The notes beneath the pieces were generated by a model. That model made no database searches and was not told the DNA's origin. It saw nothing but the letters and a program-made list of their open reading frames with translations. From Spirochaetia bacterium (GTDB lineage: Bacteria; Spirochaetota; Spirochaetia; SZUA-6; Bin103), in assembly GCA_965208575.1 (NCBI GenBank), contig CBDBOV010000003.1:608001-672000 (forward strand): a stretch of 64,000 nucleotides of DNA, given 5' to 3'. Positions within the stretch are counted from its first letter, which is position 1, and every line of letters starts with the position of its first letter. Shown here piece by piece: positions 34,212-62,544 of this stretch. Both the position numbers and the translations under genes were made by a program.

Positions 34212-35981
34212 CTAGCCGCCCATTTCCCTCTTCAGCGCCTGATCGATCCAGAGGCGGGCATAGACGGCGTTCTTGTTCCAGACCCCCATGTAGAAGTCAC
34301 CGTCGAAGCCCTGCAGCCACGGCTGGGTGACGTTGAACCATGGATTCAGGCCTCCCCACATGACGATGTGGTTCTTGACGAGCCAGAAGTCTGCCTCTCT
34401 GCCGAGCCGCTGATACTCCTCCGCGGTGGCAGCCACTCTCAGTTGCTCGATCAGTGCGTCGTACTCCGGGTCACTCAGTCCGGCGATGTTATTGTCGGCG
34501 CCGGATTCAGTGTGGGGCAGCATAATGAGCGGGCGATATGGGGTCCCCTGACTCCAGGTGCTGATGCCGTCATAGTCGCCCTTGCCACCCCCGGCGTTGG
34601 CCCGAATCGTAGGCCAGTCCATTTGCCGGATCTCAACCTCGACCCCGATCTCGGCAAGGTAGCCTTGGACGATCTCACGATGCCCGACACTGGTGGGGTT
34701 GGCGATGATGTCGCTGATCGTGAATCGGACGCCGTCGGCGCCGCGCGGATACCCGGCCTCGTCGAGGAGCTTCTCGGCAGCTTCCGGGTCGTACCGGTAG
34801 TACTGCCTGACCTCCTCGGGCCACTCCGCATACGGGATCGCAAATCCGGTGAACGGCTGTAACGAGCCCATGGGTTCGGGCCGCATCCAACCCTTGTAGT
34901 AGGTGTTGTTGATCGTTTCGAGGTCGACCGCCATCTGTATGGCGTGGCGCACGCGGATGTCGTCGAAGGGAGGCTTGGTCACGTTGAAGGCAGCGCTCTC
35001 CCCGGCCCGAAAATAGTACGCGTTCACCCTCAGCTCTGGGTTGGTCCGCTGCAGGCTGTCGATCGGGTCCACCGTAAAGAACTGACCGTGGCCGTTGTGC
35101 GCAAGGTAGTCGATCTGGCCGGTGCGCATGGCCGATACGCGCGTCGCCTGGTCTGGCATGATCAGTCTGACCAGCTCGTCGACGTAGGGCAGGCGGTTAT
35201 CGGGGTATTTCTCGTCGTGGCCCCAGTAGTCGGGGTTCTTGACCCAGGTGATGGAGCTGCCGTCGACCCAGTCCGTCAGCATGAAGGGACCGGTACCGAC
35301 CAGGTTCCGCCAGTCGGCGACGTCGCCGTGCTGCTCGATCGCCTCGGGGGCGTTTACGAACCCGATATTGTCGTCGATCAGCACCAACAGCGCATCAAGG
35401 GGTGGATCTACCAGCTTGACCTCGACCGTATATCTGTCGGTGGCGGTGACCGATTCCCATGACATCGCGGGGTATCGGGTGTTCTGGTCGCTGGTGCGCC
35501 AGCGCGCGATGTTGTACACCACGTCCTCGGCGGTCAGCTCGCGACCGTTCATCGGTGCCTTGTCATGCCAGCGAACGCCCTGGCGGATGTGGAAGATATA
35601 GGTCGTCGGATCGGGGATGTCCCAGCTTTCGGCCAGAGCCGGGGCAAATTGGTCTTCGAGCAGGAACTCGTTGGCGAGATTGTTCACGCTCCGGTCGATT
35701 CCCCAGTTCGCGATGCCGAGCTTCTCGACCACGCCGCTGGCTGCGGATCCCGCCCCTATGCCACCGATCATCGCGTCGGAATTCGGCGGCTCCCACGAGG
35801 CGCCGTAGGTCAGCGTCCCACCATACTCCGGCGCCGTGTACACCTTGCCGTTGGTGGGGTCGGTGACGTACCTCTTCTCGGCGGCGGCTGCCGCGCCGGC
35901 GCTGTCGCTCTCGCCGGCGGCGAACGAAACGGTGGCCGCCAGCGCGAACGCCAGTGCCATCGATACGAATCTGGAAACCAT
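34212..35981 (-). CDS. Family-5 (DppA/OppA/NikA-like) ABC substrate-binding protein, copy A, 589 aa
   Basis: GAGGAGG RBS, signal peptide, YGGTL, LAESWD, GTGPFML, PFDDIRVRHAI, YDPEAAEKLLDEAGY. Confidence 0.93.
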   Translation of the reverse strand: MVSRFVSMALAFALAATVSFAAGESDSAGAAAAAEKRYVTDPTNGKVYTAPEYGGTLTYGASWEPPNSDAMIGGIGAGSAASGVVEKLGIANWGIDRSVNNLANEFLLEDQFAPALAESWDIPDPTTYIFHIRQGVRWHDKAPMNGRELTAEDVVYNIARWRTSDQNTRYPAMSWESVTATDRYTVEVKLVDPPLDALLVLIDDNIGFVNAPEAIEQHGDVADWRNLVGTGPFMLTDWVDGSSITWVKNPDYWGHDEKYPDNRLPYVDELVRLIMPDQATRVSAMRTGQIDYLAHNGHGQFFTVDPIDSLQRTNPELRVNAYYFRAGESAAFNVTKPPFDDIRVRHAIQMAVDLETINNTYYKGWMRPEPMGSLQPFTGFAIPYAEWPEEVRQYYRYDPEAAEKLLDEAGYPRGADGVRFTISDIIANPTSVGHREIVQGYLAEIGVEVEIRQMDWPTIRANAGGGKGDYDGISTWSQGTPYRPLIMLPHTESGADNNIAGLSDPEYDALIEQLRVAATAEEYQRLGREADFWLVKNHIVMWGGLNPWFNVTQPWLQGFDGDFYMGVWNKNAVYARLWIDQALKREMGG

Positions 35982-36222
35982 GCTGGTTCCTCCTCTCGGG
36001 TCGCCATGCGGCGACCTGCTTGTGCGCTTGCTGCCGGCAACGCCGGCCGGTGTGGCTGGTGGATGGGGGAGATGAAAGAGATGCGGGTGGCTGGCCGAGG
36101 CAGTGAAACGGTGGATGTGCGGACGTATGGCCGCCGCCGCTACGCTGATCGACGGTGCCGCGGTCAGCACCACCCCGCGCGCTCGGTCGTCGCGTGCTTG
36201 GCTCGGGCAGTTAGCGGCGCGC

Positions 36223-36238
36223 GGTAGTCGGGTAGTCG
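36223..36238. repeat. (GGTAGTCG)x2 in the SBP-A leader
   Basis: Read directly; x7 in copy B, x3 in copy C, absent in copy D. Confidence 0.85.
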
Positions 36239-36278
36239 GCGGGTGGGCTGGGTCATGTCGTCACCCATTACCCGTGCC

Positions 36279-36307
36279 AGTATAGACGGCCCGCCCGGGT
36301 AGTGCAA
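36279..36307 (-). promoter_or_regulatory. Sigma70-type promoter of SBP copy A
   Basis: TTGCAC-N17-TATACT on the minus strand; inter-copy homology ends just beyond the -35. Confidence 0.75.
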
Positions 36308-36366
36308 TGACAGGCGTGTAGCCGCGAGCTTGATCGGTCGCATGCAGATTATTACAATAGAATACA

Positions 36367-37274: not shown

Positions 37275-37388
37275 CTAACCGGCGAGCAGACGCTGCATCA
37301 ACTCCGGCAGATTCAGGAATCGTGTACTGGTCCCGCCATAGTCGCGGACGTAGGATCTTTCGGTGTCGGCGGTCACGACGAAGTTGGC
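37275..37388 (-). pseudogene. C-terminal fragment of an AAA+/DUF4143-like ATP-binding protein
   Basis: Manual translation ANFVVTADTERSYVRDYGGTSTRFLNLPELMQRLLAG*; family assigned by recollection only. Confidence 0.35.
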
Positions 37389-37476
37389 ACTCATAGCGGA
37401 TTCTCGGATCGAGGAACCCATACGTCAGGTCGATGAGCACGTTCCCCACCACGACGAAGCTGCCAAACAGCAGGTT
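37388..37476 (-). pseudogene. dppB 3'-end relic, 89 bp
   Basis: Identical to 59751-59839. Confidence 0.92.
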
Positions 37477-37539: not shown

Positions 37540-39609
37540 CCTAGTTATTTCGGGTGGCTGGTAGTTTGAGTGGATAAGTCATTTTAGGATAGCAAGTTAC
37601 TCGCTATCCTGTCGGACGGGGCTTGTATACACTGACCGTGGTGCTGTCAGGGATGGGCGTGTCGGTATACGTCAAGTAGGCGGCACAGTTTGTCTTGCAG
37701 GGACGACCGTTCAGAGAGCACGTATTGAGCCCGGTAGCGCCCTCTGGTGGCCGGCTCAGGCGCGGCGTAGAGGTTGACCACTTCGGTCACGCCGCTGAGT
37801 TCCGTCAGTAGTTGCTCGATGGTAAGGAGTTGTCCGCCGTCGGCCGCCTTGCGTTGCAGCAGCGAACTCAGCAGCAGTGCCAACACACAATAGAACACGT
37901 GTACGCGCAGCTTCTGATCGGTCCAGTGGAAGGTCGGCGAGAAGCTCACCCAGTGGGGATTCTTCATCTGCTTGAACGCCCGCTCCACGTGATGTTGAGC
38001 GCGGCTGGCCAAGATGATCTCCTGGTCGCTCCACGACTCGTTGTCGGTGCACAGGATGCGTTTGCCCAAGCGCCGGCGTTGCAAGCGCTGGTACGCTGCC
38101 CAATCGGTGCGAAATCGAAAACTGAGCACGCCGTCGGATTCGCTGATCTGAACCTTGAGAATCTGCTTTACGTACTGACCCGAGGTGATCGTGTCGAAAT
38201 GCTTCTGCAAGGATGCTCTGCTGTAGCCTTTGCCCTTTGCTCCCGGTAGCTGGCTGCGCGCCAGCTTGCTGCGCAAGGCGCGCAACGCAGCGCGCTTCTT
38301 GCGCAACGCGTGGTTGATCCCAGCCAGCTGCCCGTCCAGCAACCGGCGACTGTTGGTGACCACCACGGTGCGGCGCTCACCCCAGATCACCTTGTCGCTG
38401 CGGTAAGCGGTCACCCCGGCCAGCCGTGGGTCAGTGAAGGAGTGAAACCTGCCGGCGGGAACCGCCAGCAGATCCTCGTGCTGAGTCACGGTCAAGGAGG
38501 TGACGAAATGGTATGGGCCGGCTTGCAGCGCCTCGATATTCGCTCTCGAGGTGTTGCCGCCATCGAACACCAGCGTGACATCTTCGCAGTCCTGGGCCAA
38601 CTGCTTGCAGCGGCTGATCAGCGTCTCGATCAAGCTCGAGAACATCGCGGCGTCATTCTGATTTCCCGGATACGGGTGTGAGAGCAGCGGAATGTGGTAG
38701 TCGCAGCTTACCAGGAGTGCCAAGCCCAGGATCCGCAGATCGGCGCGTTTGCTTTTCGCGTGGCCACGTTGTGCCAGTGCACTGACGGTGCGACTGTCGA
38801 TGAACGTATCGAAGTTGGTCGCATCGAAGATGAGCGGTCGCAGATCGATCCGGTAGTGGTCGATCACCCGCTGCGCCAGTTGTTGCTCAATCGCGCCGAT
38901 GGCAGCGCTGTCGAGCATGTTCATGTGATCCCAGAATCGCTGACTGGCGAGCGAGCGCTGTGCAGCGGGGAGCAGCCGATTCAACACCGTGCGTCGATAC
39001 CACTGGTACAGAGAAGCCTTGCTGGAGGCGGCCACACAACGGTTCAGCGCCGCCACCAGCAGATACTGTCCGCAGGACAGTCCTTGGTCTCGCTTGGGGA
39101 CCTGGGTATCGATAAGGCCCACCACATCCAACTCTTGGGCGATCTGCCAGAGCGCGGCCAACGCACCGAACTGAATGACCTTCGCCTTTGCCGGTCGGGT
39201 GGGAGCCTCACGGAGGCGCTGGAGCAACTTCTCTGCGCTGCCGAGATGTTCGAGGACGATGGGACGTGGTTTGCCGTTGACGCGTCTGGACTCGACGATC
39301 TGCCAGTAGGTGTGCCCGCGGGAGACCTTTTTCTGGAGGGTGGCCACTGCAATCAGTGTATACACTTAGTACGGAGACAGTCAAGGAGAACCGGCATGAG
39401 TGGGTCGGAAGGATCGAAGAGGGGATACTTCGAGTAGTATTGAGGAAGCTGTCCGGCACGGCGCTCGATATATTCAGTGTATACACTGATCCTCTCAAGA
39501 GGAGAGTCCACTTCCGTGAACCTATCTTGTTTCATGGTAACAACTTATCTGGATGAACCAGAGAATCCCGCGGTCAAATCAACGGGATAAGTAGGAAGGT
39601 CAGGCTAGG
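37540..39609 (-). mobile_element. IS1634-family insertion sequence; ends approximate
   Basis: Transposase ORF bounded by CCTAG...CTAGG; the right end abuts TCACGATTGAC, which continues the SBP 3' flank as in copy C; no direct repeat seen. Confidence 0.7.
37647..39365 (-). CDS. IS1634-family DDE transposase
   Basis: YWQIVESRRVNGKPR, FDATNF, GHAKSKRADL, LVFDGG, VERAFKQMK, FHWTDQKLRVHVFYCVLAL. Start may be GTG 39347. Confidence 0.9.
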   Translation of the reverse strand: MYTLIAVATLQKKVSRGHTYWQIVESRRVNGKPRPIVLEHLGSAEKLLQRLREAPTRPAKAKVIQFGALAALWQIAQELDVVGLIDTQVPKRDQGLSCGQYLLVAALNRCVAASSKASLYQWYRRTVLNRLLPAAQRSLASQRFWDHMNMLDSAAIGAIEQQLAQRVIDHYRIDLRPLIFDATNFDTFIDSRTVSALAQRGHAKSKRADLRILGLALLVSCDYHIPLLSHPYPGNQNDAAMFSSLIETLISRCKQLAQDCEDVTLVFDGGNTSRANIEALQAGPYHFVTSLTVTQHEDLLAVPAGRFHSFTDPRLAGVTAYRSDKVIWGERRTVVVTNSRRLLDGQLAGINHALRKKRAALRALRSKLARSQLPGAKGKGYSRASLQKHFDTITSGQYVKQILKVQISESDGVLSFRFRTDWAAYQRLQRRRLGKRILCTDNESWSDQEIILASRAQHHVERAFKQMKNPHWVSFSPTFHWTDQKLRVHVFYCVLALLLSSLLQRKAADGGQLLTIEQLLTELSGVTEVVNLYAAPEPATRGRYRAQYVLSERSSLQDKLCRLLDVYRHAHP

Positions 39610-39634: not shown

Positions 39635-41404
39635 CTAGCCGCCCATTTCCCTCTTTAGCGCCTGATCGATCCAGAGGCGGGCATAGACGGCGTTCTTGTT
39701 CCGGGTCCCCATGTAGAAGTCACCGTCGAAACCCTGCAGCCACGGCTGGGTGACGTTGAACCATGGATTCAGGCCTCCCCACATGAAGATGTGGTTCTTG
39801 ACGAGCCAGAAATCTGCCTCTCTCGCGAGCCGCTGATACTCCTCCGCGGTGGCAGCCACTTTCAGTGCCTCGAACAGCGCGTCGTACTCCGGGTCACTGA
39901 GTCCTGGGGCGTTGTTCGGGTGGCCCGACGACGTGGCGTTCAGAATTACCAGAGGGCGATACGGGACGCCCTGACCCCAGGTGGTGATGCCGTCATACTC
40001 GCCCTTGCCACCCTTGAAGTTGGCGCTCATCGTAGACCAGTCCTGTTGCCGGATCTCGACCTGGACCCCGATCTTGGCAAGGTAGCCCTGGACGATCTCA
40101 TGATGCCCGATGCTCTGGGGGTTGCTAAAGATGTCGCTGATCGTGAATCGGATGCCGTCGGCGCCGCGCGGATACCCGGCCTCGTCGAGGAGCTTCTCGG
40201 CAGCTTCCGGGTCGTACCGGTAGTACTGCCTGACCTCCTCGGGCCACTCAGCAAACGGAATCGCAAATCCGGTGGCGGGCTGTTGCGTCCCCATGGGTTC
40301 GGGCCGCATCCAACCCTTGTAGTAGGTAGTGTTGATGGATTCGAGGTCGACCGCCATCTGTATTGCGTGGCGCACGCGGATGTCGTCGAAGGGTGGCTTG
40401 GTCACGTTGAAGGCAGCGCTCTCCCCCGCCCGAAAATAGTACGCGTTCACCCTCAGCTCGGGGTTGCTCCGCTGCAGGCTGTCGATCGGGTCCACCGTCT
40501 GAAAGTATCCGTCGCTGTTGTGACCAAGGTAGTCGATCTGGCCAGTACGCATGGCCGAGATGCGTGTCGCTTGGTCAGGCATGATCAGTCTGACCAGCTC
40601 GTCGATGTAGGGCAGGCGGTTCTCGGGGTACTTCTCGTCGTGGCCCCAGTAGTCGGGATTCTTGACCCAGGTGATGGCGCTGCCGTCGACCCAGTCCGTC
40701 AACATGAAGGGACCGGTACCGACCAGGTTCCTCCAGTCGGCGACGTCGCCGTGCTGCTCGATCACCTCAGGGGCGTTTACGAACCCCAAACCGTCCTCGA
40801 TCAGCACCAACAGCGCATCGAGGGGTGGATCGACCAGCTTGACCTCGACCGTGTATCTGTCGGTGGCGGTGACCGATTCCCATGTCATCGCGGGGTATCG
40901 GGTGTTCTTGTCGCTGGTGCGCCAGCGCGCGATGTTGTACACCACGTCCTCGGCCGTGAGCTCGCGGCCGTTCATCGGTGCCTTGTTGTGCCAGCGAACG
41001 CCCTGACGGATGTGGAAGATATAGGTCGTCGGATTGGGGATGTCCCAGCTTTCGGCCAGAGCCCCGGTAAAGTGGTCGGCGAGCAGGATTTCGTTCGCGA
41101 GGTCGTTCACGCTCCGATCTATGCCCCAGTTGGCGATGCCGAGCTTCTCGACCACGCCGCTGGCGGCAGCTCCTGCGGTGATACCACCGACAATCGCGTC
41201 GGAGTTCGGAGGCTCCGAACTGGAGCCGTAGGTCAACGTCCCACCATACTCCGGCGCCGTGTACACCTTGCCGTTGGTGGGGTCGGTGACGTACTTCTTG
41301 TCGGCGGCGGCTGCCGCGCCGGCGCTGTCGCTTTCGCCGGCGGCGAACGAAACGGTGGCCGCCAGCGCGAACGCCAGTGCCATCGATACGAATCTGGAAA
41401 CCAT
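39635..41404 (-). CDS. Family-5 ABC substrate-binding protein, copy B, 589 aa
   Basis: Colinear paralogue of copy A with the same RBS and no indels. Confidence 0.93.
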   Translation of the reverse strand: MVSRFVSMALAFALAATVSFAAGESDSAGAAAAADKKYVTDPTNGKVYTAPEYGGTLTYGSSSEPPNSDAIVGGITAGAAASGVVEKLGIANWGIDRSVNDLANEILLADHFTGALAESWDIPNPTTYIFHIRQGVRWHNKAPMNGRELTAEDVVYNIARWRTSDKNTRYPAMTWESVTATDRYTVEVKLVDPPLDALLVLIEDGLGFVNAPEVIEQHGDVADWRNLVGTGPFMLTDWVDGSAITWVKNPDYWGHDEKYPENRLPYIDELVRLIMPDQATRISAMRTGQIDYLGHNSDGYFQTVDPIDSLQRSNPELRVNAYYFRAGESAAFNVTKPPFDDIRVRHAIQMAVDLESINTTYYKGWMRPEPMGTQQPATGFAIPFAEWPEEVRQYYRYDPEAAEKLLDEAGYPRGADGIRFTISDIFSNPQSIGHHEIVQGYLAKIGVQVEIRQQDWSTMSANFKGGKGEYDGITTWGQGVPYRPLVILNATSSGHPNNAPGLSDPEYDALFEALKVAATAEEYQRLAREADFWLVKNHIFMWGGLNPWFNVTQPWLQGFDGDFYMGTRNKNAVYARLWIDQALKREMGG

Positions 41405-41772: not shown

Positions 41773-41959
41773 GGACAATCGCATCTACCGCCATCCACCG
41801 CCCCGTCGCCTGGGCTTCCGGAGCCATGTGGGCGACGACGTTGCCGTGGCTGGCGCCGGAGAAGCGCGTCGGTGATGAGGGCGACGCCGGCGATCATGCC
41901 GCTGGACCGCTCGGACCGCTCCGTTGCCCCGCCGGGTTCCGTGCTATTATGCCGCTGTG

Positions 41960-44765
41960 ATGCAGACTGCGGCGGTCAGGTCTCGTCCGTTGCTCGCCGG
42001 CGCGGCCGCCAAGCGCCGCGTCGCGTCGCGGGCGTCGCGCTGCTGCTCGTCATCCTGGTGCCGTTCGCGGCGCTGAACCGGCTCCCAAGCTGGATACGGT
42101 GCGCGAGGACCTGCGCGCCGCGCTCGCCCCCACCGCGCAGTGTTTTCAGGGGTTCTGCATCGAAGATCCCGAGCGGGCGGGCGAACGGAGTGGCTTCCTC
42201 GACCGTTGGTGGCGATTCTCCGTGACCTACCTGCAGCTCGTTGCCGTCGGGATGTTGTTTGCGTTTGCCGCCGCCGCCATTGCCGAGGCGTTCCTGGTCT
42301 CCGACCTGTCGGTGCGTGCAGGCCCCGCTACCGCTACCGCGGCCGCTGGACGCGGGCGTTGGCGGCGCATCCTGAAGGGCGTCGGTCTCGGCCCGGTGCT
42401 CAACCTCTGCTCGGCATGCGTCGCTCCGGTGTCCAGCACGCTGCGCCGCGGCGGCATGGGAGTCGAGGGCGCGCTCGCCCTGGTGCACGGATCGGCCACG
42501 ATGAACGTGCCGTCGCTGCTGATGATCGCCGTGGTGTTCACCCCGCTGCTCGGTGCGAGCCGGCTCGTTCTCGGGCTGGTCGCAGCGTTCTCGCTGGGGC
42601 CCCTGGTCGCGTGGGCGGTGCGCCTGCGCGGCGCGCGCCTCGACCACCGCGCGGGCGCCGAGCTCGCCTGTGCGGTGCCGGCCGTGGCAGCGGAGACGGC
42701 GACCTGGTTGGAGGTGCTGCGCACCGGCGGCGCGCACTGGCTGCGCTCGTTCGTCCGCCTGGTGCGGCGCATGTTGCCGCTCATGATCGTGGCCGGCTTC
42801 GCCAGCGGCGCGGCGATCCAGGCGTTGCAGCCACAGACCGTTACCGCCTTCCTCGGCGACAGCCTGCTGGGGGTCCTCGTCGCGGCGACGCTCGGGGTGC
42901 TGATCAACGTGCCGTTGCTGTTCGAGATCCCGCTCGTCGCGCTGCTGCTGATCCTCGGCGCCGGTACGGCGCCGGCCGCGGCGCTGCTGTTCGCCGCCGC
43001 CGCCGCGGGGCCGGTCACCTTCCTCGCGCTTGCCAAGGCCCTCGGGCGCCGCGGCGTCGCCGTCTACGCGGGCGGCACCTGGGCGATCGCCGTGCTCGGG
43101 GGATGCGCGGTGCTGCTGGTGGGGGCGCTGCTGGGGCCGGAGCGGGCGGCGCTGCGACTCGACGGTGGTCCGGCTACGGACGCCACCGGCCACGTCGGCG
43201 CCGTGCCCAACGCCATCGTGCTGGCCACCTGCGCCGGTGAGCCGGCGCTGTGCCCGGAGCAGAGCGGACTCCGTTGGCCGCACACGCCCACCATCCATGG
43301 GCACTCGGTGACCAGTGCCGGGGGCGCCGTCGGCGACTTCGACCGGGACGGTTGGCAGGACCTGTTCGTGCCGTCGGGCGGCACCTCGCCCGACCGGCTG
43401 TACATGAACAACGGCGACGGCACGTTCACGGACCGCGCCGCCGAGGCCGGAATCGCGGCCCGCCATCACGGCTACGGCGCGGCCGTCGGCGACGTGGACG
43501 GCGATGGCTGGCTCGACATCTTCGTCATCAGCTACGGCAGCGTGGACCAGCGCTTCACCATGCCCGGCAACCACCGCCTGTACCGCAACAACGGCGACGG
43601 CACGTTCACCGACATCGCCGCCCGCGCGGGGGTGGCGACCACCAGCCTCAAGCAGCCGACCGGCACCGGGGCCAGCTTCGGCGACTACGACCTCGACGGC
43701 GACCTGGACCTGGCCGTGGCCTCGTGGTTCTACGGCGAGGGGGGCAACGCGCTGTTCCGGAACAACGGCGACGGGACGTTCGAGAACGTGACCTCACTGC
43801 TGCCATTCGGTGGCAAGCGTGCCCCGATGGGGTATACGCCGCTGTTCGCCGACATGGACGGCGACCGCTATCCCGAGTTGCTGTGGGCCGCCGACTACTT
43901 CACCAGCAGCTACCTGCGCAACGACGGCGGTGGCGGCTTCACCGACATCACCGCGCAATCCGGGACCGGGCTGGACGCCAACGGCATGGGCGCAGCGGCA
44001 GCCGATCTCGACAACGACGGCAGGCTCGACTGGTTCGTGACCTCGATCAGCACACGGTATGCGGTCGACAAGGCGCCGGGTACCGGGAACTTCCTGTACC
44101 GCAACCAGGGCGGCCATCGCTACGAGTCGGTCGGCGACCGCGCGGGGGTCAAGGAGGGCGGCTGGGGATGGGGTGCCGTCGCGGTGGACCTGGACCACGA
44201 CGGCTGGCTCGACCTGGTGCAGACCAACGGCTGGGAGGGGCCCAACGGCCGCGACGATCCCGAGTGGGCGTCCGAGACGACCAGGGTGTTCCGCAACCTC
44301 ACCGCCGCCTCGTCTGAACTGACCTTCGCCGACGTCGCCGAACAAGCGGGCCTCGTGCACCGCGGGCAGGGCCGGGGAGTGGTTCACCTCGACTATGACA
44401 ATGACGGCGACCAGGACCTGGTCATCTTCAACAACGCGGAACTACCTACGCTGGTGCGCAACGAGCTCGACCCGGGCAGCGACGGCGCCGGGCACTGGCT
44501 GCGCGTGTTTCTGGACACCGCAGCGCGTGCAGACCTGGCGCCCGACGGTTTCGGCAGCCTGGTCGCGGTGCGCGCCGGCGATCTTCGCCAAGTGCGCTAC
44601 GTCGGCGCGGCGGCCGGCTACCTCGGTCCGTCCGAGCTGTCGGCCCACTTCGGTCTCGGCGCCGCGCCGGTGGTGGACGAGCTGCAGGTGCACTGGGCCG
44701 ACGGCAGCACCTCCACCTACCACCAGGTGCCCACCAACCGCACCCTCACCATCACGGCCCGTTGA
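41960..44765 (+). pseudogene. Permease-FG-GAP/ASPIC fusion, copy 2, 5' frameshifts; 888-aa ORF remains from 42099
   Basis: Versus copy 1: +5 bp near 42021-42030 and -1 bp at about 42085; the rest is open. Confidence 0.8.
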
Positions 44766-48144: not shown

Positions 48145-48154
48145 GCTGACGGCC

Positions 48155-51093: not shown

Positions 51094-52062
51094 CTATGTG
51101 TTTAACGCCGGGCTGTAGTACTCAGGTTTCGATCTTACTTCTTTAATGAAATCGGCCACTATCTTTTCGAAATCCGCATACACTGGCCTCCACCCCCATT
51201 CCTCACGAGCCCGGCGATCATCGAAGTTATCGAGACTGCGGTAATAATCCATCACCCATGGGTCCGGCTTATAGGTAAATTGAGCTTCCGGAATGAACTT
51301 CTTTATAGTCAGTTCTACCTCCCTGGCCGGTAGTGATGGGAACACCCCTACAATGTTATAGCAGACGGTCTCTATTTGCTCCTTGGGTGCATCATACAGC
51401 ATTTGTGTGGCCCGCATGGCATCTTCATAGTACAGGACAGGAAGTTTGGTGTCTTCGCTGACAGGACACTCGGCCGGCCTGCCCAGGGCCGCACTTTGAA
51501 TCATCCAGGAAATATATTGCAGCTCCTTACTGATCCTGACACTGGGACCAAAGATGTTGGGGTATCGTATGCAGCGAAAGTCAAGGTCAAAGGTGTTCCG
51601 ATAGTATCTGCCAATAAGCTCACCATATAGCTTCGTTACACCGTACGCGCTAGCAGGCCGTTGTAGTGTCTCATCGGTGATAGTTTCAGTAGGTATTCCC
51701 AGACTATAGGTCATCATACTGCTGGTAAACACCACCCGCTTTACCCCGAACAGTCGCGCCGCCTCCAGGACATGCATTATTCCGGCGACATTCCCTTCAC
51801 AAACGATCCAGGGGCGTAGCGGGAAGCTAGGTATCGTGCCAAGGTGAAATACGCCTTCTACGTTGTTTTCCTTGACAACATTCAACACTTCAGGCCAGAT
51901 CTTCTGGTCTCCCTGGACAACCTTTACGTTGTTCTTGATATCCGCGACGCCCTCTATTCGCGGAGCGATGTCAAACAATATGACGTCCTCGCCCCTCTCT
52001 ACCAGTCTATGTGCCAGGCCAGTACCAACCCAACCTGTTCCGCCGGTAATAAGTATAGACAT
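51094..52062 (-). CDS. NAD-dependent epimerase/dehydratase, copy 2
   Basis: Near-identical to 32990-33958 with a handful of substitutions. Confidence 0.88.
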   Translation of the reverse strand: MSILITGGTGWVGTGLAHRLVERGEDVILFDIAPRIEGVADIKNNVKVVQGDQKIWPEVLNVVKENNVEGVFHLGTIPSFPLRPWIVCEGNVAGIMHVLEAARLFGVKRVVFTSSMMTYSLGIPTETITDETLQRPASAYGVTKLYGELIGRYYRNTFDLDFRCIRYPNIFGPSVRISKELQYISWMIQSAALGRPAECPVSEDTKLPVLYYEDAMRATQMLYDAPKEQIETVCYNIVGVFPSLPAREVELTIKKFIPEAQFTYKPDPWVMDYYRSLDNFDDRRAREEWGWRPVYADFEKIVADFIKEVRSKPEYYSPALNT

Positions 52063-52216
52063 CCTTCTCTGCTTCCTTATGTGATCGTCCTCCATGTAAG
52101 GAACAAATGTCAACCCCGCAGTACGCTTTTTCGAACGATTATGCGCACCGTCAACTGAAGCTCGTACGCTCTCATGGCAGATACCTGGCTGTGATCACGC
52201 GGCGTGCGGAGATGAG

Positions 52217-52298: not shown

Positions 52299-54068
52299 CT
52301 AGCCGCCCATTTCCCTCTTCAGCGCCTGATCGATCCAGAGGCGGGCGAAGACGGCGTTCTTGTTCCAGACCCCCATGTAGAAGTCACCGTCGAAACCCTG
52401 CAGCCACGGCTGGGTGACGTTGAAGTATGGAATGAGGCCTCCCCACATGTGGATGTGGTTCTTTACGAGCCAGAAAACGGCCTCTCTCGCGAGCCGCTGG
52501 TGTTCCTCCGCGGTGGCAGCCACTTTCAGTTGCTCGATCAGTGCGTCGTACTCCGGGTCACAGAGTCCGGAGACGTTAACGTTGTCGCCGCACGTCATCT
52601 GGGGAAGACGAATCAGAGGGCGATACGGAGTGCCCTGACCCCAGTAGCTGATGCCGTCATAGTCGCCCTTGCCACCCTTGATCTTGGGGTGCATCGTAGC
52701 CCAGTCCTGTTGCCGGATCTCCGTCTGGACCCCGATCTCGGCAAGGTAGCCTTGGACGATCTCACGATGCGGGACGTTTGTGGGGAATCTGTAGTTGTCG
52801 GTCATCGTGAATCGGATGCCATCGGCGCCGCGCGGATACCCGGCCTCGTCGAGGAGCTTCTCGGCAGCTTCCGGGTCGTACCGGTAGTACTGCTTGACCT
52901 CCTCGGGCCACTCCGCATACGGAATCGCATTTCCGGTGAACGGCTGTAACTCCCCCATGGGTTCCGGCCGCATCCAACCCTTGTAGAAGGTGTTGTTGAT
53001 CGTATCGAGGTCGACCGCCATCTGTATGGCGTGCCGCACGCGGATGTCGTCGAAGGGAGGCTTGGTCACGTTGAAGGCAGCGCTCTCCCCCGCCTGAAAA
53101 TACATCGCGTTCACCCTCAGCTCGGGGTTGGTCCGCTGCAGGCTTTCGACCGGGTCCACCGTCGTGAACCGCCCGTTGCTGTTGTGACCAAGGTAGTCGA
53201 TCTGGCCAGTACGCATGGCCGAGATGCGTGTCGCTTGGTCAGGCATGATCAGTCTGACCAGCTCGTCGGTGTAGGGCAGGCGGTTCTCGGGGTACTTCTC
53301 GTCGTGGCCCCAGTAGTCGGGGTTCTTGACCCAGGTCATCGAGCTGCCGTCGACCCAGTCCGTCAGCATGAAGGGACCGGTACCGACCAGGTTCCGCCAG
53401 TCGGCGACGTCGCCGTGCTGCTCGATCGCCTCGGGCGCGTTTACGAACCCGATATTGTCGTCGATCAGCACCGACAGCGCATCGAGGGGTGGATCTACCA
53501 GCTTGACCTCGACCGTGTATCTGTCGGTGGCGGTGACCGATTCCCATGACATCACGGGGTATCGGGTGTTCTGGTCGCTGGTGCGCCAGCGCGCGATGTT
53601 GTACACCACGTCGTCGGCCGTGAGCTCGCGACCGTTCATCGGTGCCTTGTCGTGCCAGCGAACGCCCTGACGGATGTGGAAGATATAGGTCGAAGGGTTG
53701 GGGATGTCCCAGCGTTCGGCCAGAGCCCCGGTGAAGTGGTCCTCGAGCAGGAACTCGATGGTGAGATCGTTCACGCTCCGATCTATGCCCCAGTTGGCGA
53801 TGCCGAGCTTCTCGACCACGCCGCTGGCGGCAAATCCTGCGCTGATACCACCGACCATCGCATCGGAGTTCGGAGGCTCCGACGAGGAGCCGTAGGTCAA
53901 CGTCCCACCATACTCCGGCGCCGTGTACACGATGCCGTTGGTGGGGTCGGTCACGTACCTCTTCTCGGCGGCGGCTGCCGCGCCGGCGCTCTCGCCTTCG
54001 CCGGCGGCGAACGAAACGGTGGCCGCCAGCGCGAACGCCAGTGCCATCGATACGAATCTGGAAACCAT
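52299..54068 (-). CDS. Family-5 ABC substrate-binding protein, copy C, 589 aa
   Basis: Colinear paralogue; most divergent C-terminal patches. Confidence 0.93.
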   Translation of the reverse strand: MVSRFVSMALAFALAATVSFAAGEGESAGAAAAAEKRYVTDPTNGIVYTAPEYGGTLTYGSSSEPPNSDAMVGGISAGFAASGVVEKLGIANWGIDRSVNDLTIEFLLEDHFTGALAERWDIPNPSTYIFHIRQGVRWHDKAPMNGRELTADDVVYNIARWRTSDQNTRYPVMSWESVTATDRYTVEVKLVDPPLDALSVLIDDNIGFVNAPEAIEQHGDVADWRNLVGTGPFMLTDWVDGSSMTWVKNPDYWGHDEKYPENRLPYTDELVRLIMPDQATRISAMRTGQIDYLGHNSNGRFTTVDPVESLQRTNPELRVNAMYFQAGESAAFNVTKPPFDDIRVRHAIQMAVDLDTINNTFYKGWMRPEPMGELQPFTGNAIPYAEWPEEVKQYYRYDPEAAEKLLDEAGYPRGADGIRFTMTDNYRFPTNVPHREIVQGYLAEIGVQTEIRQQDWATMHPKIKGGKGDYDGISYWGQGTPYRPLIRLPQMTCGDNVNVSGLCDPEYDALIEQLKVAATAEEHQRLAREAVFWLVKNHIHMWGGLIPYFNVTQPWLQGFDGDFYMGVWNKNAVFARLWIDQALKREMGG

Positions 54069-54396: not shown

Positions 54397-54583
54397 GGAC
54401 ACGCATCTACCGCAATCTACTGCCCCCGTCGCCTGGGCTTCCGGAGCCATGTGGGCGAACGACGTTGCCGTGGCTGGCGCCGGAGAAGCGCGTCGGTGAT
54501 GAGGGCGACGCCGGCGATCATGCCGCTGGACCGCTCGGACCGCTCCGTTGCCCCGGCGGGTTCCGTGCTACTATGCTACGGTG

Positions 54584-57374
54584 ATGCAGACTGCGGCGGT
54601 CAGGGCTCGTCCGTTGCTCGCCGGCGCCGCCGCCAAGCGTCGCGGGCGTCCCGTTGCTGCTCGTCATCCTGGTGCCGTTCGCGGCGCTGAACCGGCTCCC
54701 CAAGCTGGATACGGTGCGCGAGGACCTGCGCGCCGCGCTCGCCCCCACCGCGCAGTGTTTTCAGGGGTTCTGCATCGAGGATCCCGAGCGGGCGGGCGAA
54801 CGGAGTGGCTTCTTCGACCGTTGGTGGCGATTCTCCGTGACCTACCTGCAGCTCGTTGCCGTCGGGATGTTGTTTGCGTTTGCCGCCGCCGCCATTGCCG
54901 AGGCGTTCCTGGTCTCCGACCTGTCGGTGCGTGCAGGCCCCGCTACCGCGGCCGCTGGACGCGGGCGTTGGCGGCGCATCCTGAAGGGCGTCGGTCTCGG
55001 CCCCGTGCTCAACCTCTGCTCGGCATGCGTCGCTCCGGTGTCCAGCACGCTGCGCCGCGGCGGCATGGGAGTGGAGGGCGCGCTCGCCCTGGTGCACGGA
55101 TCGGCCACCCTGAACGTGCCGTCGCTGCTGATGATCGCCGTGGTGTTCACCCCGCTGCTCGGTGCAAGCCGGCTCGTTCTCGGGCTGGTCGCAGCGTTCT
55201 CGCTGGGGCCCCTGGTCGCGTGGGCGGTGCGGCGGCGCGGCGCGCGCCTCGACCACTGCGCGGGCGCCGAGCTCGCCTGTGCGGTGCCGGCCGTGGCAGC
55301 GGAGACGGCGACCTGGTCGGAGGTGCTGCGCACCGGCGGCGCGGCATGGCTGCGCTCGTTCGCCCGCCTGGTGCGGCGCATGTTGCCGCTCATGATCGTG
55401 GCCGGCTTCGCCAGCGGCGCGGCGATCCAGGCGTTGCAGCCAGAGACCGTTACCGCCTACCTCGGCGACAGCCTGCTGGGGGTGGTAATCGCGGCGACGC
55501 TCGGGGTGCTGATCAACGTGCCGCTGCTGTTCGAGATCCCGCTGGTCGCGCTGCTGCTGATCCTCGGCGCCGGTACGGCGCCGGCGGCGGCCCTGCTGTT
55601 CGCCGCCGCCGCCGCCGGGCCGGTTACCTTCCTCGCGCTTGCCAAGGCCCTCGGGCGCCGCGGCGTCGCCGTCTACGCGGGCGGCACCTGGGCGATCGCC
55701 GTGCTCGGGGGATGCGCGGTGCTGCTGGTGGGGGCGCTGCTGGGGCCGGAGCGGGCGGCGCTGCGACTCGACGGTGGTCCGGCTACGGACGCCACCGGCC
55801 ACGTCGGCGCCGTGCCCAACGCCATCGTGCTGGCCACCTGCGCCGGTGAGCCGGCGCCGTGCCCGGAGCAGAGCGGACTCCGTTGGCCGCACACGCCCAC
55901 CATCCATGGGCACTCGGTGACCAGTGCCGGGGGCGCCGTCGGCGACTTCGACCGGGACGGTTGGCAGGACCTGTTCGTGCCGTCGGGCGGCACCTCGCCC
56001 GACCGGCTGTACATGAACAACGGCGACGGCACGTTCACGGACCGCGCCGCCGAGGCCGGAATCGCGGCCCGCCATCACGGCTACGGCGCGGCCGTCGGCG
56101 ACGTGGACGGCGATGGCTGGCTCGACATCTTCGTCATCAGCTACGGCAGCGTGGACCAGCGCTTCACCATGCCCGGCAACCACCGCCTGTACCGCAACAA
56201 CGGCGACGGCACGTTCACCGACATCGCCGCCCGCGCGGGGGTGGCGACCACCAGCCTCAAGCAGCCGACCGGCACCGGGGCCAGCTTCGGCGACTACGAC
56301 CTCGACGGCGACCTGGACCTGGCCGTGGCCTCGTGGTTCTACGGCGAGGGGGGCAACGCGCTGTTCCGGAACAACGGCGACGGGACGTTCGAGAACGTGA
56401 CCTCACTGCTGCCATTCGGTGGCAAGCGTGCCCCGATGGGGTATACGCCGCTGTTCGCCGACATGGACGGCGACCGCTATCCCGAGTTGCTGTGGGCCGC
56501 CGACTACTTCACCAGCAGCTACCTGCGCAACGACGGCGGTGGCGGCTTCACCGACATCACCGCGCAATCCGGGACCGGGCTGGACGCCAACGGCATGGGC
56601 GCAGCGGCAGCCGATCTCGACAACGACGGCAGGCTCGACTGGTTCGTGACCTCGATCAGCACACGGTATGCGGTCGACAAGGCGCCGGGTACCGGGAACT
56701 TCCTGTACCGCAACCAGGGCGGCCATCGCTACGAGTCGGTCGGCGACCGCGCGGGGGTCAAGGAGGGCGGCTGGGGATGGGGTGCCGTCGCGGTGGACCT
56801 GGACCACGACGGCTGGCTCGACCTGGTGCAGACCAACGGCTGGGAGGGGCCCAACGGCCGCGACGATCCCGAGTGGGCGTCCGAGACGACCAGGGTGTTC
56901 CGCAACCTCACCGCCGCCTCGTCTGAACTGACCTTCGCCGACGTCGCCGAACAAGCGGGCCTCGTGCACCGCGGGCAGGGCCGGGGAGTGGTTCACCTCG
57001 ACTATGACAATGACGGCGACCAGGACCTGGTCATCTTCAACAACGCGGAACTACCCACGCTGGTGCGCAACGAACTCGACGCGGGCAGCGACGGCGCCGG
57101 GCGCTGGCTGCGCGTGTTTCTGGACACGGCAGCGCGTGCGGATCTGGCGCCCGACGGGTTCGGCAGCCTGGTCGCGGTGCGCGCCGGCGATCTTCGCCAG
57201 GTGCGCTACGTCGGCGCGGCGGCCGGCTACCTCGGCCCGTCCGAGCTGTCGGCCCACTTCGGTCTCGGCGCCGCGCCGGTGGTGGACGAGTTGCAGGTGC
57301 ACTGGGCCGACGGCAGCACCTCCACCTACCACCAGGTGCCCACCAACCGCACACTCACCATCACGGCCCGTTGA
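54584..57374 (+). pseudogene. Permease-FG-GAP/ASPIC fusion, copy 3, -5 bp 5' frameshift; 906-aa ORF remains from TTG 54654
   Basis: AAGCGTCGCG versus AAGCGCCGCGTCGC in copy 1; the remainder is open. Confidence 0.8.
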
Positions 57375-58738: not shown

Positions 58739-58752
58739 GAGTAACACGTATA

Positions 58753-58764: not shown

Positions 58765-58821
58765 CAGCACAGTCAAGCTCGATGGCTCCGCGACAGAGAG
58801 CTCCGGCCAGAGCCTATCTAC

Positions 58822-59757
58822 CTACGCTCTTTTCGCCGGCTCGCGGCCCAGGCGGCCGCCGCCGCCCCGCAGGCGCGGGTCGAGCAGGTCGCGCACCGCG
58901 TCGCCGAACATGTTCAGGCTGTAGACCAGCACGGTCAGGAAGATGCCGGGCCAGAACGCCAGCCACGGCGCCTGCTCCATGTACTCGCGGCCTTCGCGGC
59001 TCAGCATACCACCCCAACTGGGAACCTCCAGTGGCAGACCGAAGCCGAGAAAGCTCAAGCTGGCCTCACTGATGATCACCGCACCGATGTTGATGCTGAA
59101 CACGATGATCACGGGAGCGACGATGTTGGGCACCACGTGCCACACGAGCGTCCTCCATCGCGAGGACCCGATCGCCTCGGCCGCCTGAAAGTACGCGTTC
59201 TCCTTGATCGCGATTACGGCGCTTCTGACCACCCGCGAGCCGCCGATGCCGCCGGTAACGCCAAGGACCACGATGGTCTGCACCAGCCCCTGCCCGACGA
59301 TGGACATGATGGTCAACAGGATCAGCAGTCCGGGTATCGACACCCAGGCGTCGACGAATCGTTGGGTCGCCAGGTCCACGTTACCGCCAACGAATCCGGA
59401 GGCACCGCCGACCACCATGGCGACCACGACGTTGAGGGCGGTCGCGGCCAGGCCAACGGTCAGCGAAACACGGGCGCCGTAGATCAGGCGGGTCAGCAGG
59501 TCGCGTCCGACATGATCGGTGCCGAGCAGGAAGCGCGCCGAGGGGCCGCTGAGCCGATCGGCCAGGCTCATCTCCAGCATTCCGTAGGGAGCCAGCACGT
59601 CGGCGAAGATGGCGGTCAGCGCGAACAGCACGATGATGATCCCGCTGGCGGTTCCCAGCGGTTTCTCCTTCCACAGCCGGGCGAAGAAGTAGGCGGCGCC
59701 GGCGCGGGTCTTCGGCTCGCTGGGCTCGCTCACCGCGGTGGTCTGTCTGTCACTCAT
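58822..59757 (-). CDS. DppC/OppC-like peptide ABC permease
   Basis: LLGTDHVGRDLLTRLIYGARVSL, EASLSFLGFG, NMFGDAVRDLLDPR. Confidence 0.93.
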   Translation of the reverse strand: MSDRQTTAVSEPSEPKTRAGAAYFFARLWKEKPLGTASGIIIVLFALTAIFADVLAPYGMLEMSLADRLSGPSARFLLGTDHVGRDLLTRLIYGARVSLTVGLAATALNVVVAMVVGGASGFVGGNVDLATQRFVDAWVSIPGLLILLTIMSIVGQGLVQTIVVLGVTGGIGGSRVVRSAVIAIKENAYFQAAEAIGSSRWRTLVWHVVPNIVAPVIIVFSINIGAVIISEASLSFLGFGLPLEVPSWGGMLSREGREYMEQAPWLAFWPGIFLTVLVYSLNMFGDAVRDLLDPRLRGGGGRLGREPAKRA

Positions 59758-60706
59758 AGCGGATTCTCGGATCGAGGAACCCATACGTCAGGTCGATGAG
59801 CACGTTCCCCACCACGACGAAGCTGCCAAACAGCAGGTTGATTCCCGACACCACCGTGTAGTCTCGGTCTTCGAGCGCATTCAGCATCAGACGACCCAGC
59901 CCAGGCAGATTGAAGATGTTCTCCATGATGACCGAGCCGCCCACCAGGATGGGCAGCTGCAAGCCCACCAGCGTGATCACCGGGATGATGGCGTTCTTGA
60001 CCGCGTGCCGCACGACCACCGCCCGCTCCTTCAGCCCCTTGGACCAGGCGGTGCGGACATAGTCCTGCCGTAGCACCTCCAGCATCATGGTGCGTGTCAT
60101 CCGCATGGTGGCCGCGGCCATCGCCGTTCCCAGGATGGCGCCGGGAATGAGGAACATCCCCAGGTTCCCCAGCGGGTCGGCGCTGAACCGGATGAGCCGC
60201 ATCGGCGGTGACCAGCCCCACCAGATTGCCGGGTAGAGCATGACCATCAACGCCAGCCAGAAGTTGGGCGTTGCCAGGCCGACGACGGCAACCGAGCGTC
60301 CCACGTAGTCGGGGGTGGTATCCTGGCGGATCGCCGAGTAGATGCCCACCGGCAGGGCGATCAGCAGCCCGATCACCAGCGCCGTCACGCCGAGCTGAAT
60401 CGTCACCGGCAACCTGCCCGCTATCTTCTCGTTTACGGAGAAGCGGCCGAGCAGGGATTGACCCAGGCTCCCGTGCAGCACGATGTCGCCCAGCCAGCGC
60501 GCGTACTGCACGGGAATGGGCTGGTCCAAGCCGAGCTTGCGCTCGAGAGCTTCGCGGTCGATCTCGCCGGCGGTGAAGGCGAAGTCGGCCTGCATGGCGT
60601 CGATGACATCGCCGGGGATGAACCGGACCAGCAGAAAGACGATCATGCTCAGGATCAGGAGCGTAGGGACGACCAGCAGCACCCTTCTGATGACGTACGC
60701 TCTCAT
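59750..60706 (-). CDS. DppB/OppB-like peptide ABC permease, the only intact copy
   Basis: GLDQPIPVQYARWL, QDYVRTAWSKGL, ENIFNLPGLG, DLTYGFLDPRIRY. Confidence 0.93.
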   Translation of the reverse strand: MRAYVIRRVLLVVPTLLILSMIVFLLVRFIPGDVIDAMQADFAFTAGEIDREALERKLGLDQPIPVQYARWLGDIVLHGSLGQSLLGRFSVNEKIAGRLPVTIQLGVTALVIGLLIALPVGIYSAIRQDTTPDYVGRSVAVVGLATPNFWLALMVMLYPAIWWGWSPPMRLIRFSADPLGNLGMFLIPGAILGTAMAAATMRMTRTMMLEVLRQDYVRTAWSKGLKERAVVVRHAVKNAIIPVITLVGLQLPILVGGSVIMENIFNLPGLGRLMLNALEDRDYTVVSGINLLFGSFVVVGNVLIDLTYGFLDPRIRYE

Positions 60707-60722
60707 GGCAGATACCTGGTTG

Positions 60723-60764
60723 TGAGGGAGCCGGGAAGCTTGCGCGAGGCTTCCGGCTCCCTCA
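60723..60764 (-). terminator. Strong intergenic stem-loop between SBP-D and dppB
   Basis: TGAGGGAGCCGG...CCGGCTCCCTCA, 12-bp perfect outer stem. Confidence 0.6.
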
Positions 60765-60774
60765 TATGGCGTAA

Positions 60775-62544
60775 CTAGCCGCCCATTTCTTTCTTCAGCG
60801 CCTGGTCGATCCAGAGGCGGGCATAGACGGCGTTCTTGTTCCAGACCCCCATGTAGAAGTCACCGTCGAAGCCCTGCAGCCACGGCTGGGTGACGTTGAA
60901 CCATGGATTCAGGCCTCCCCACATGAAGATGTGGTTCTCCACGAGCCAGTAATCTGCCTCTTTGCCGAGCCGCTGATATTCCTCCGCGGTGGCAGCCACT
61001 CTCAGTTGCTCGATCAGTGCGTCGTACTCCGGGTCACTGAGTCCGGGGACGTTATTGTCGGCGCCGGACGCCTTGTGGGGCAGAATAATGAGAGGGCGAT
61101 ATGGGGTTCCCTGACTCCAGTTGCCGATGCCGTCATACTCGCCCTTGCCACCCCGGAAGCTGGCCTGGAACGTAGGCCAGTCCATTTGCCGGATCTCGAC
61201 CTGGACCCCGATCTCGGCAAGGTAGCCCTGGACGATCTCACGATGCCCGATACTCGCGGGGTTGGCGATGATGTCGCTGATCGTGAATCGAATGCCGTCG
61301 GCGCCGCGCGGATACCCGGCCTCGTCGAGGAGCTTCTCGGCAGCTTCCGGGTCGTACCGGTAGTACTGCTTGACCTCCTCGGGCCACTCCGCATACGGAA
61401 TCGCAAATCCGGTGGCGGGCTGTATCGACCCCATGGGTTCGGGCCGCATCCAACCCTTGTAGTAGGTGTTGTTGATCGTTTCGAGGTCGACCGCCATCTG
61501 TATTGCGTGGCGCACGCGGATGTCGTCGAAGGGTGGCTTGGTCACGTTGAAGGCAGCGCTCTCCCCCGCCCGAAAATAGTACGCGTTCACCCTCAGTTCG
61601 GGGTTGGTCCGCTGCAGGCTGTCGATCGGGTCCACCGTGAAGAACTGACCGTGGCCGTTGTGCGCCAGGTAGTCGATCTGGCCGGTGCGCATGGCCGATA
61701 CGCGCGTCGCTTGGTCTGGCATGATCAGTCTGACCAACTCGTCGACGTAGGGCAGGCGGTTCTCGGGGTACTTCTCGTCGTGGCCCCAGTAGTCGGGATT
61801 CTTGACCCAGGTCATGGAGCTGCCGTCGACCCAGTCCGTCAGCATGAAGGGACCGGTACCGACCAGGTTCCGCCAGTCGGCGACGTCGCCGTGCTGCTCG
61901 ATCACCTCGGGGGCGTTTACGAACCCGATATTGTCGTCGATCAGCACCAACAGCGCATCGAGGGGTGGATCTACCAGCTTGACCTCGACCGTATATTTGT
62001 CGGTGGCGGTGACCGATTCCCATGACATCGCGGGGTATCGGGTGTTCTGGTCGCTGGTGCGCCAGCGCTCGATGTTGTACACCACGTCCTCGGCGGTCAG
62101 CTCGCGACCGTTCATCGGCGCCTTGTCGTGCCAGCGAACGCCCTGACGGATGTGGAAGATATAGGTCGAAGGGTCGGGGATGTCCCAGCTTTCGGCCAGA
62201 GCCGGGGCAAAATGGTCTTCGAGCAGGAACTCGTTGGCGAGATTGTTCACGCTCCGATCGATGCCCCAGTTGGCGATGCCGAGCTTCTCGACGACGCCGC
62301 TGGCGGCAGATCCTGCCCCGATACCACCGACCATCGCGTCGGAGTTCGGCGGCTCCCACGAGGCGCCGTAGGTCAGCGTCCCACCATACTCCGGCGCCGT
62401 GTACACGATGCCGTTGGTGGGATCGGTGACGTACTTCTTGTCGGCGGCGGCTGCCGCGCCGGCGCTCTCGCTCTCGCCGGCGGCGAACGAAACGGTGGCC
62501 GCCAGCGCGAACGCCAGTGCCATCGATACGAATCTGGAAACCAT
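60775..62544 (-). CDS. Family-5 ABC substrate-binding protein, copy D, 589 aa, in operon with dppBC
   Basis: Same motifs and RBS as copies A-C. Confidence 0.93.
   Translation of the reverse strand: MVSRFVSMALAFALAATVSFAAGESESAGAAAAADKKYVTDPTNGIVYTAPEYGGTLTYGASWEPPNSDAMVGGIGAGSAASGVVEKLGIANWGIDRSVNNLANEFLLEDHFAPALAESWDIPDPSTYIFHIRQGVRWHDKAPMNGRELTAEDVVYNIERWRTSDQNTRYPAMSWESVTATDKYTVEVKLVDPPLDALLVLIDDNIGFVNAPEVIEQHGDVADWRNLVGTGPFMLTDWVDGSSMTWVKNPDYWGHDEKYPENRLPYVDELVRLIMPDQATRVSAMRTGQIDYLAHNGHGQFFTVDPIDSLQRTNPELRVNAYYFRAGESAAFNVTKPPFDDIRVRHAIQMAVDLETINNTYYKGWMRPEPMGSIQPATGFAIPYAEWPEEVKQYYRYDPEAAEKLLDEAGYPRGADGIRFTISDIIANPASIGHREIVQGYLAEIGVQVEIRQMDWPTFQASFRGGKGEYDGIGNWSQGTPYRPLIILPHKASGADNNVPGLSDPEYDALIEQLRVAATAEEYQRLGKEADYWLVENHIFMWGGLNPWFNVTQPWLQGFDGDFYMGVWNKNAVYARLWIDQALKKEMGG

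Follow-up and report, generated by a model that had tools for sequence, protein, structure and literature searches.

A tandem array of recombining solute-binding protein genes whose differences concentrate at the predicted ligand cleft

Introduction

Four closely similar genes for solute-binding proteins (SBPs), copies A to D, lie on the reverse strand of a 64,000-nucleotide (nt) stretch from a Spirochaetia bacterium (contig CBDBOV010000003.1, positions 608,001 to 672,000, assembly GCA_965208575.1), hereafter the window. The locus raises the question of why such similar proteins differ in short patches, and what keeps these patches different. A first-pass annotation had proposed gene conversion together with diversifying selection, acting either on the ligand cleft or on a phage- or host-exposed surface. 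The analysis reported here revealed recombination among the copies and probably with alleles of relatives, placed the variable residues at the cleft by alignment to DppA of Escherichia coli, and showed tandem amplification of a transporter unit followed by loss of permease genes. It is considered moderately probable that the scaffold is kept uniform by recombination and that selection maintains different pockets feeding a shared permease.

Four binding proteins on one scaffold

All four copies (Table 1) are 1,770 nt long, encode 589 residues in intact frames and align without gaps, with pairwise identities of 90.3-95.1% at the nucleotide level and 84.8-93.7% at the protein level. In each, the start MVSRF is preceded by a GAGGAGG ribosome-binding site. 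Extending the reading frames to GTG/ATG codons that lie in frame before MVSRF was rejected because of this strong ribosome-binding site and because of non-triplet indels in L001, the closest related locus (94%), which, like the next closest, L002 (84%), belongs to a metagenome-assembled genome (MAG) of Spirochaetia.

The SBP_bac_5 domain of copy A scored 252 bits against a gathering threshold of 32.4. Its AlphaFold2 model, with a predicted local distance difference test score of 94.1, gave DppA and OppA as the top Foldseek matches (probability 1.00), including E. coli DppA 1DPP (E 1e-34, TM 0.67-0.72) at a sequence identity of only 21-27%. All 11 NCBIfam models that matched scored below their cut-offs, including NikA (122 against 393), DppA (103 against 1005) and OppA (91 against 947). 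The proteins are family-5 (cluster C) ATP-binding cassette (ABC) solute-binding proteins, and not OppA or DppA equivalogs. Their leader is hydrophobic, of the signal-peptidase-I type, and ends in SFA-A with no lipobox cysteine, so a soluble periplasmic protein is predicted. A phage- or host-exposed surface, the second option of the first-pass annotation, is accordingly unlikely.

Copies A, B and D contain no cysteine. Both Cys493 and Cys503 occur in copy C and in the relative P0007, and neither occurs in the relatives P0002 and P0003. Residue 503 of copy C aligns to C435 of DppA, which also has C422; C422 and C435 presumably form a disulphide bond in DppA, and the pair in copy C is probably an analogous disulphide gained in a variable loop.

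Recombination among the copies

The motifs cited in the first-pass annotation were all found in A to D, and EKR/DKK, GKV/GIV and ASW/SSS divide the copies in three different ways. Among 266 variable nucleotide sites, 65 are informative, of which 42 support AD|BC, 12 AC|BD and 11 AB|CD; the dominance of AD|BC indicates one main tree overlaid by conflicting signal. The 23 conflicting sites exceed every simulated expectation, bearing out the statement that no single tree explains the copies. Simulations on a single tree under GTR+G gave a mean of 5.0 conflicts, and none of 500 reached 23; at third positions alone, 13 conflicts were observed versus 3.3 in these simulations. Codon-model simulations gave means of 9-10, with none of 1,000 reaching the 22 conflicts observed in the mature part, and forcing extreme gamma rate variation gave means of 9-11, with none of 300 reaching 23.

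The pairwise homoplasy index (PHI) test, which asks whether conflicting sites cluster along the sequence, gave p values for A to D alone of 0.040 with all sites, 0.13 with one site per codon and 0.14 with synonymous codons; when the orthologue L001 was included, these became 1e-4, 1e-4 and 0.015. At the protein level, p was 1e-4 in each of three sets drawn from 38 aligned sequences, with near-duplicates and the frameshifted P0014 excluded: 8 close sequences, 20 sequences, and 15 sequences without the window copies. L001 resembles A and D except in a B-like stretch at residues ~479-520, where B groups with L001 with an ultrafast bootstrap support (UFBoot) of 100, and over residues 33-300 B groups with C, both segments having been chosen after viewing the data. 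At residues 95-114, B shows no difference from the distant relative P0031 and five from D. A runs test on the site pattern (p 0.0002) was discounted because adjacent sites within a codon are not independent.

Recombination has thus occurred among the copies and probably with alleles of relatives. This part of the proposed gene conversion stands; conversion within the genome is not separable from allele import from other cells.

Position of the variable residues

Among the copies, 116 residues vary, 28 of them with three or more states, and the variable residues are clustered along the chain as the first-pass annotation had claimed (none of 10,000 permutations was equally clustered). The family profile was aligned to E. 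coli DppA by hhalign (probability 100), and the resulting cleft mapping, made by sequence alignment and not from three-dimensional coordinates, may be off by one or two residues. By this alignment, the patches of the first-pass annotation correspond to DppA T20-Y25, R355-Y357, W386-L390, M403-D408 and S429-Y431. Of the 17 cleft anchors, 13 are positions that we take to be DppA ligand contacts, their residue identities having been checked by alignment. The remaining four, R355, D408, D153 and K498, are binding-site residues of DppA according to the available part of PMC8566422, and R355 and D408 are confirmed in that of PMC12136057. A full list of DppA contacts was not found in the literature searched.

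Within one residue of the four cited anchors, 7 of 12 positions are variable versus 107 of 545 elsewhere (p 0.004; 0.005 under a shift null). The same holds for all 17 mapped contact positions (12/17 versus 102/540) and for the residues within two positions of them (29/56 versus 85/501), and three-state sites are concentrated there as well (15/56 versus 13/501), with no circular shift equalling these values. The location at the cleft, one half of the first-pass claim of diversifying selection, is therefore upheld at the level of the DppA alignment. Since the positions aligned to R355 and D408 carry no Arg or Asp in copy A, a DppA-type anchoring of dipeptides is not to be assumed.

Relatives and recurring pocket types

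The locus search kept the best 80 of 138 matches, giving 76 loci, of which 30 came from the single chromosome OZ253572.1 and the others included Dehalococcoidia. Among the 8,000 candidates that were scored in the protein search, 3,895 proved to be relatives, 120 of them listed. A cluster search of a protein atlas gave SBP_bac_5 clusters only. On scaffold positions, A to D, L001 and the closest matches form one clade (UFBoot 99).

Comparison of the clefts revealed that pocket types recur. Anchor residues are identical within A and P0001, within C, P0002 and P0003, and within D and L001, whereas D differs from A, B and C at 5, 10 and 8 of the 17 anchors. The cleft is nearest to that of D in 28 of 33 close matches, and A-type and C-type clefts recur nearly unchanged elsewhere, with differences at 3-4 of 56 cleft residues. 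The second, broken copy of L002 differs from P0032 at none of 40 cleft positions and at 22 of 338 scaffold positions. The ratio of cleft to scaffold differences is 3.1-4.2 between the window paralogues, 0.9-1.1 for D or L001 against L002, P0004 and P0017, and 0-0.5 among those (Fisher p 0.004-0.03). The members of the pairs P0009/P0024 and P0017/P0031 agree in the length of their longest contig (577,037 and 35,923 nt), so that each pair may represent two close paralogues on one contig of another assembly.

Tests of selection

Between the window copies, the whole-gene ratio of nonsynonymous to synonymous divergence (dN/dS, omega) is 0.25-0.74. Fixed-site models with a shared synonymous clock gave a scaffold omega of 0.19-0.22 and a cleft omega of 0.86-1.04, which is not different from 1. 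When the cleft was given its own clock, its omega was 0.43-0.47 and its rate 2.2-2.4 times higher, indicating that its synonymous sites are also older. Site models, run in our own implementation that scaled branch lengths from M0, gave nominal p values of 0.004-0.018 for M1a/M2a and M8a/M8, and positive selection by these tests was rejected on calibration: the M1a/M2a statistic of 8.05 was reached in 21 of 82 neutral simulations on segment-specific trees with recombination, and this likelihood ratio test (LRT) is therefore not evidence of selection. A segment-tree fit (LRT 10.1 from 0.4% of sites with omega ~16) is uncalibrated and is not relied on. In the cleft of B and C, dN is 0.45 versus a dS of 0.19 (Fisher p 0.04-0.11 depending on rounding), in one of six pairs. 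Formal diversifying selection, the other half of the first-pass claim, was thus not demonstrated.

The co-duplicated neighbours serve as a control for age. In the block shared by B and C, dS is 0.129 for the SBP versus 0.035 for the FG-GAP gene, and in the block shared by A and C it is 0.184 versus 0.013 for an epimerase gene. The longest identical tracts in these blocks measure 91-95 nt in the SBPs versus 1,197 nt (FG-GAP) and 596 nt in the neighbours; between any pair of window SBPs, they reach 121 nt at most. Together with the cleft-to-scaffold ratios and the recurring pocket types, these comparisons support, only indirectly but more strongly than the omega tests, the idea that selection keeps the pockets different.

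Amplification of the unit and loss of permeases

L001 carries a single unit, FG-GAP gene ... oppC-oppB-SBP, collinear with window positions 54562-62769. The window repeats this unit, with three FG-GAP genes and four SBPs, and the left end of the array carries a desaturase-FG-GAP junction, as in L002. The latter locus holds one intact SBP copy alongside a second with a 5' deletion and a fragment of a third, and is the amplification process in decay. In the window, oppB remnants that differ from one another stand behind copies A, B and C, and intact permeases occur only at D. Of 90 full-length family genes at the fetched loci, 74 are followed by full oppB and 66 by oppC as well (seven genes near contig ends excluded), so the remnants represent losses.

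Weighing of the explanations

In the proposed mechanism, recombination and selection act together. Synteny and remnants show that, in this relative of the Spirochaetia, the [FG-GAP gene ... oppC-oppB-SBP] unit was recently amplified in tandem, and redundant permeases were lost in three of four units. The three extra binding proteins, if expressed and able to dock on a shared OppBC, would probably load the intact pair beside D or another permease of the family. Homologous recombination between copies and with alleles of relatives would keep the scaffold alike and shuffle segments, while selection, and not drift, may keep the differing sets of cleft residues. Each copy may thereby bind a different ligand spectrum, widening the uptake range of one translocator, and an established pocket type would then be held by purifying selection; a dedicated diversifying machine would not be needed. 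A doubtful extension of this mechanism is a combinatorial binder repertoire, in which duplication and routine recombination of cleft-lining segments yield new specificities on a fixed docking scaffold, with the expression of each copy possibly tuned by an 8-nt repeat in its leader. If true, the array would be a natural library for the reshuffling of binding specificity.

Several points weigh against the proposed mechanism. An omega above 1 was not demonstrated, PHI is marginal when restricted to the four copies, and the mosaic triplets involving L001 (p 0.0013-0.0027, 61 tested) fail Bonferroni correction. The cleft tree and the scaffold tree both hold the window copies in one clade. Of the 17 anchors of the cleft mapping, 13 are presumed contacts; R355 was positioned manually within a gap of the alignment, Y114 was dropped as unaligned, and three-state sites are not enriched at the four cited anchors (1/12). 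Cleft positions are also among those that vary generally in the family (Spearman correlation of 0.42 with the entropy across 79 distant homologues), so the pattern could in part reflect low constraint. In addition, ORF (open reading frame) scans of the window identified no OppD/F ATPase beside the array.

Some of these points would suit recombining duplicates under relaxed selection, that is, redundant copies whose cleft loops drift neutrally toward loss by birth and death. A cleft omega of ~1, a site-model signal that is gone on calibration, the family-wide variation of the same positions, the broken extra copies of L002, and the lost permeases and inserted insertion sequence (IS) elements can all be read in this way. 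Such drift is nevertheless rather unlikely, given a scaffold omega of 0.2 with four intact frames, the recurrence of A-type and C-type clefts nearly unchanged in other sequences, and SBPs that are several times more diverged than their co-duplicated neighbours, synonymous sites included. The excess of SBP dS over flank dS also favours allele import as the main source, with older SBP alleles of related species recombining into fresh duplicates via the conserved leader and 3' end, as do the match of B to the distant P0031 at residues 95-114 and the occurrence of the epimerase beside A and C at 93% identity in another MAG (L042). Since the scaffold positions form one clade, any donors must be close relatives. 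Import is improbable as the main source; its functional outcome would be the same as that of the proposed mechanism, and the two are compatible.

Two further explanations carry much less weight. Strain haplotypes of one locus joined in tandem during assembly could produce the long identical tracts between units, and the related records are MAGs; such an artefact is very improbable, because each unit has distinct flanks, insertions and a differently truncated oppB remnant, L002 is an independent multi-copy version, and PHI is significant without the window sequences. Patchy recombining variation in a spirochaete-related genome, with several toxin-antitoxin modules nearby, also recalls antigenic or phage-driven variation of an exposed protein by vlsE/tprK-like cassettes, or a diversity-generating retroelement (DGR). 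However, every copy is a full-length gene that has a leader and a ribosome-binding site of its own and is not a silent cassette, the lipobox is absent and the variable patches fall at the cleft. The window ORFs scanned gave no match to a reverse transcriptase or a site-specific recombinase, and the changes are not adenine-specific, as 139 of 266 variable sites involve adenine and 55 involve C/G only. Phage records with SBPs numbered 39, all below 60% identity and at 26-29% among the matches listed. With no reverse transcriptase match, no adenine bias and only distant phage SBPs, DGR, cassette variation and phage origin were rejected, and this group of explanations is regarded as extremely improbable.

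Comparison with known systems

The window SBPs share PF00496, the fold recognised by Foldseek and linked oppB/oppC permeases with DppA and OppA of E. coli, from which they differ in their low sequence identity and in falling under the NCBIfam cut-offs. The OppA proteins of Borrelia are lipoproteins and far more diverged than the window copies. According to the available text of PMC5736914, Borrelia burgdorferi OppA1-5 are five binding proteins for two permeases, and their variability peaks in the ligand-binding region while outer surfaces are more conserved; that text makes no mention of mosaicism. There as here, a spirochaete has several binding-protein paralogues that outnumber the permeases; the window copies, by contrast, are much younger (85-94% identical), recombine, lack a lipobox and stand beside permease remnants and IS elements. 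In an opsin model, divergence peaks are kept under gene conversion, as described in the available part of PMC3924837; there, too, neighbouring DNA is homogenised, functional sites are diverged and dS is raised around them. That model concerns a eukaryotic two-copy system, in contrast to a bacterial multi-copy array where allele import is also possible. The SBP array fits the divergence-peak model in combining recombination and homogenised flanks with a peak of divergence at the predicted cleft. Cassette antigenic variation (Borrelia vlsE, Treponema tprK) and DGRs likewise place patchy variable regions in a conserved scaffold by recombination. The window array has no silent donors, single expression site or adenine bias, no reverse transcriptase was found in it, and its protein is predicted to be periplasmic and not exposed.

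The processes that built the array are known ones. Permeases shared by SBP paralogues whose pockets differ are familiar as well, usually with old and deeply diverged genes. Here, a single scaffold at 85-94% identity carries differences concentrated in ~56 cleft residues, with recurring pocket types and co-duplicated neighbours as a control, suggesting that a familiar route to a wider bacterial diet has been caught at an early stage. Duplication and divergence of transporter specificity would be directly testable with four soluble proteins, which also offer access to a large SBP subfamily with expansions in uncultured Spirochaetia and Chloroflexota. Neither this subfamily nor mosaic arrays of SBPs were described in the literature searched (in part, without supplements).

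Other features of the array

Table 1. Features of the array in window coordinates
Feature	Position	Strand	Remarks
SBP copy A	34212..35981	-	SBP_bac_5 (PF00496 E 1e-74), 589 aa, Sec signal peptide; without own permeases
SBP copy B	39635..41404	-	residues 95-114 as in distant paralogue P0031; residues ~479-520 as in L001
SBP copy C	52299..54068	-	Cys493/Cys503 pair, not in A, B, D
SBP copy D	60775..62544	-	linked to intact oppB-oppC; cleft type conserved in related genomes
Conserved ~330-nt upstream region, common to all four copies (that of A given)	35982..36312	-	promoter-like site, 8-nt repeat tract, GAGGAGG ribosome-binding site
oppB-like permease	59750..60706	-	BPD_transp_1 and N-terminal domain; only intact oppB in array
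oppC-like permease	58822..59784	-	BPD_transp_1 and OppC_N; start codon not fixed
oppB remnant directly after copy A, first ~78 nt	34042..34119	-	approximate limits
Internal oppB fragment	30427..30601	-	90% identical to intact oppB
oppB remnant downstream of copy B beyond IS, last ~90 nt	37385..37476	-	
oppB remnant after copy C	52163..52194	-	first 13 nt of oppB plus its ribosome-binding region
IS1634 transposase between copy B and its oppB remnant	37647..39365	-	NF033559, 271 bits, cut-off 100
FG-GAP gene copy 1	25828..28669	+	ArsP-like permease, FG-GAP repeats, ASPIC/UnbV; left end of array, beside desaturase-family gene
FG-GAP gene copy 2	41938..44765	+	co-duplicated, divergent from SBP B
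FG-GAP gene copy 3	54562..57374	+	co-duplicated, divergent from SBP C; shares an identical 1,197-nt tract with copy 2
NAD-dependent epimerase ORF	32990..34009	-	low GC; after oppB remnant of copy A
Second epimerase copy	51094..52113	-	after copy C; 99% identical to first, dS 0.013

The FG-GAP copies are mosaic themselves: copy 1 is 4% different from the others and yet shares identical tracts of 789-842 nt with them. Small indels occur at the 5' ends of copies 2 and 3, and a lone UnbV piece lies at 48565-49029. The epimerase genes have a GC content at third codon positions of 0.56 versus 0.83 for the SBPs, follow A and C at points where oppB is truncated differently, and are 93% identical to a gene at L042 2679-3669; the epimerase is a recent lateral acquisition. 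M28 and M20 peptidase genes (45832-47676 and 49272-50453) lie between FG-GAP copy 2 and SBP C; such neighbours are compatible with peptide- or amide-type ligands and are not evidence for them. Type II toxin-antitoxin modules are dense between the units, at 30681-32578, 47881-48550, 57553-58521, 44762-45744 and 36367-37136, the last being an unassigned two-gene pair; the types comprise Phd-PIN (twice), MazE-Doc, a ParE pair, MazF and helix-turn-helix genes. These modules could stabilise the amplified units against deletion. An ISKra4-like transposase at 62928-63956, directly upstream of the leader of copy D, scored 193 bits against a cut-off of 205, with its N-terminal part unmatched. Rfam gave no matches in the window.

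In the leader of copy A, a promoter-like site, TTGCAC-N17-TATACT, lies at 36307-36279; it was not listed by a consensus promoter scanner, and its function as a promoter is putative. The motif is not general in the family: only 3 of 94 upstream regions contain it, compared with 17 of 1,500 windows taken at random. Just downstream of this site, the SBP leader carries the 8-nt tandem repeat CTACCCGA (coding strand), found in the window at 41656-41711, 54311-54339 and 36223-36239, and in the related loci at L001 9669, L002 11826, L016 9548 and 15089, L041 9488 and L044 799. Copy A has about two repeats, B 7, C 3.6 and D none; L001 has 11, and 4-12 occur elsewhere, making the repeat a candidate for expression tuned by slippage. 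Of the six repeat arrays at the fetched loci, five are located no more than 900 nt upstream of a match to the SBP, and the remaining one precedes the broken copy of L002.

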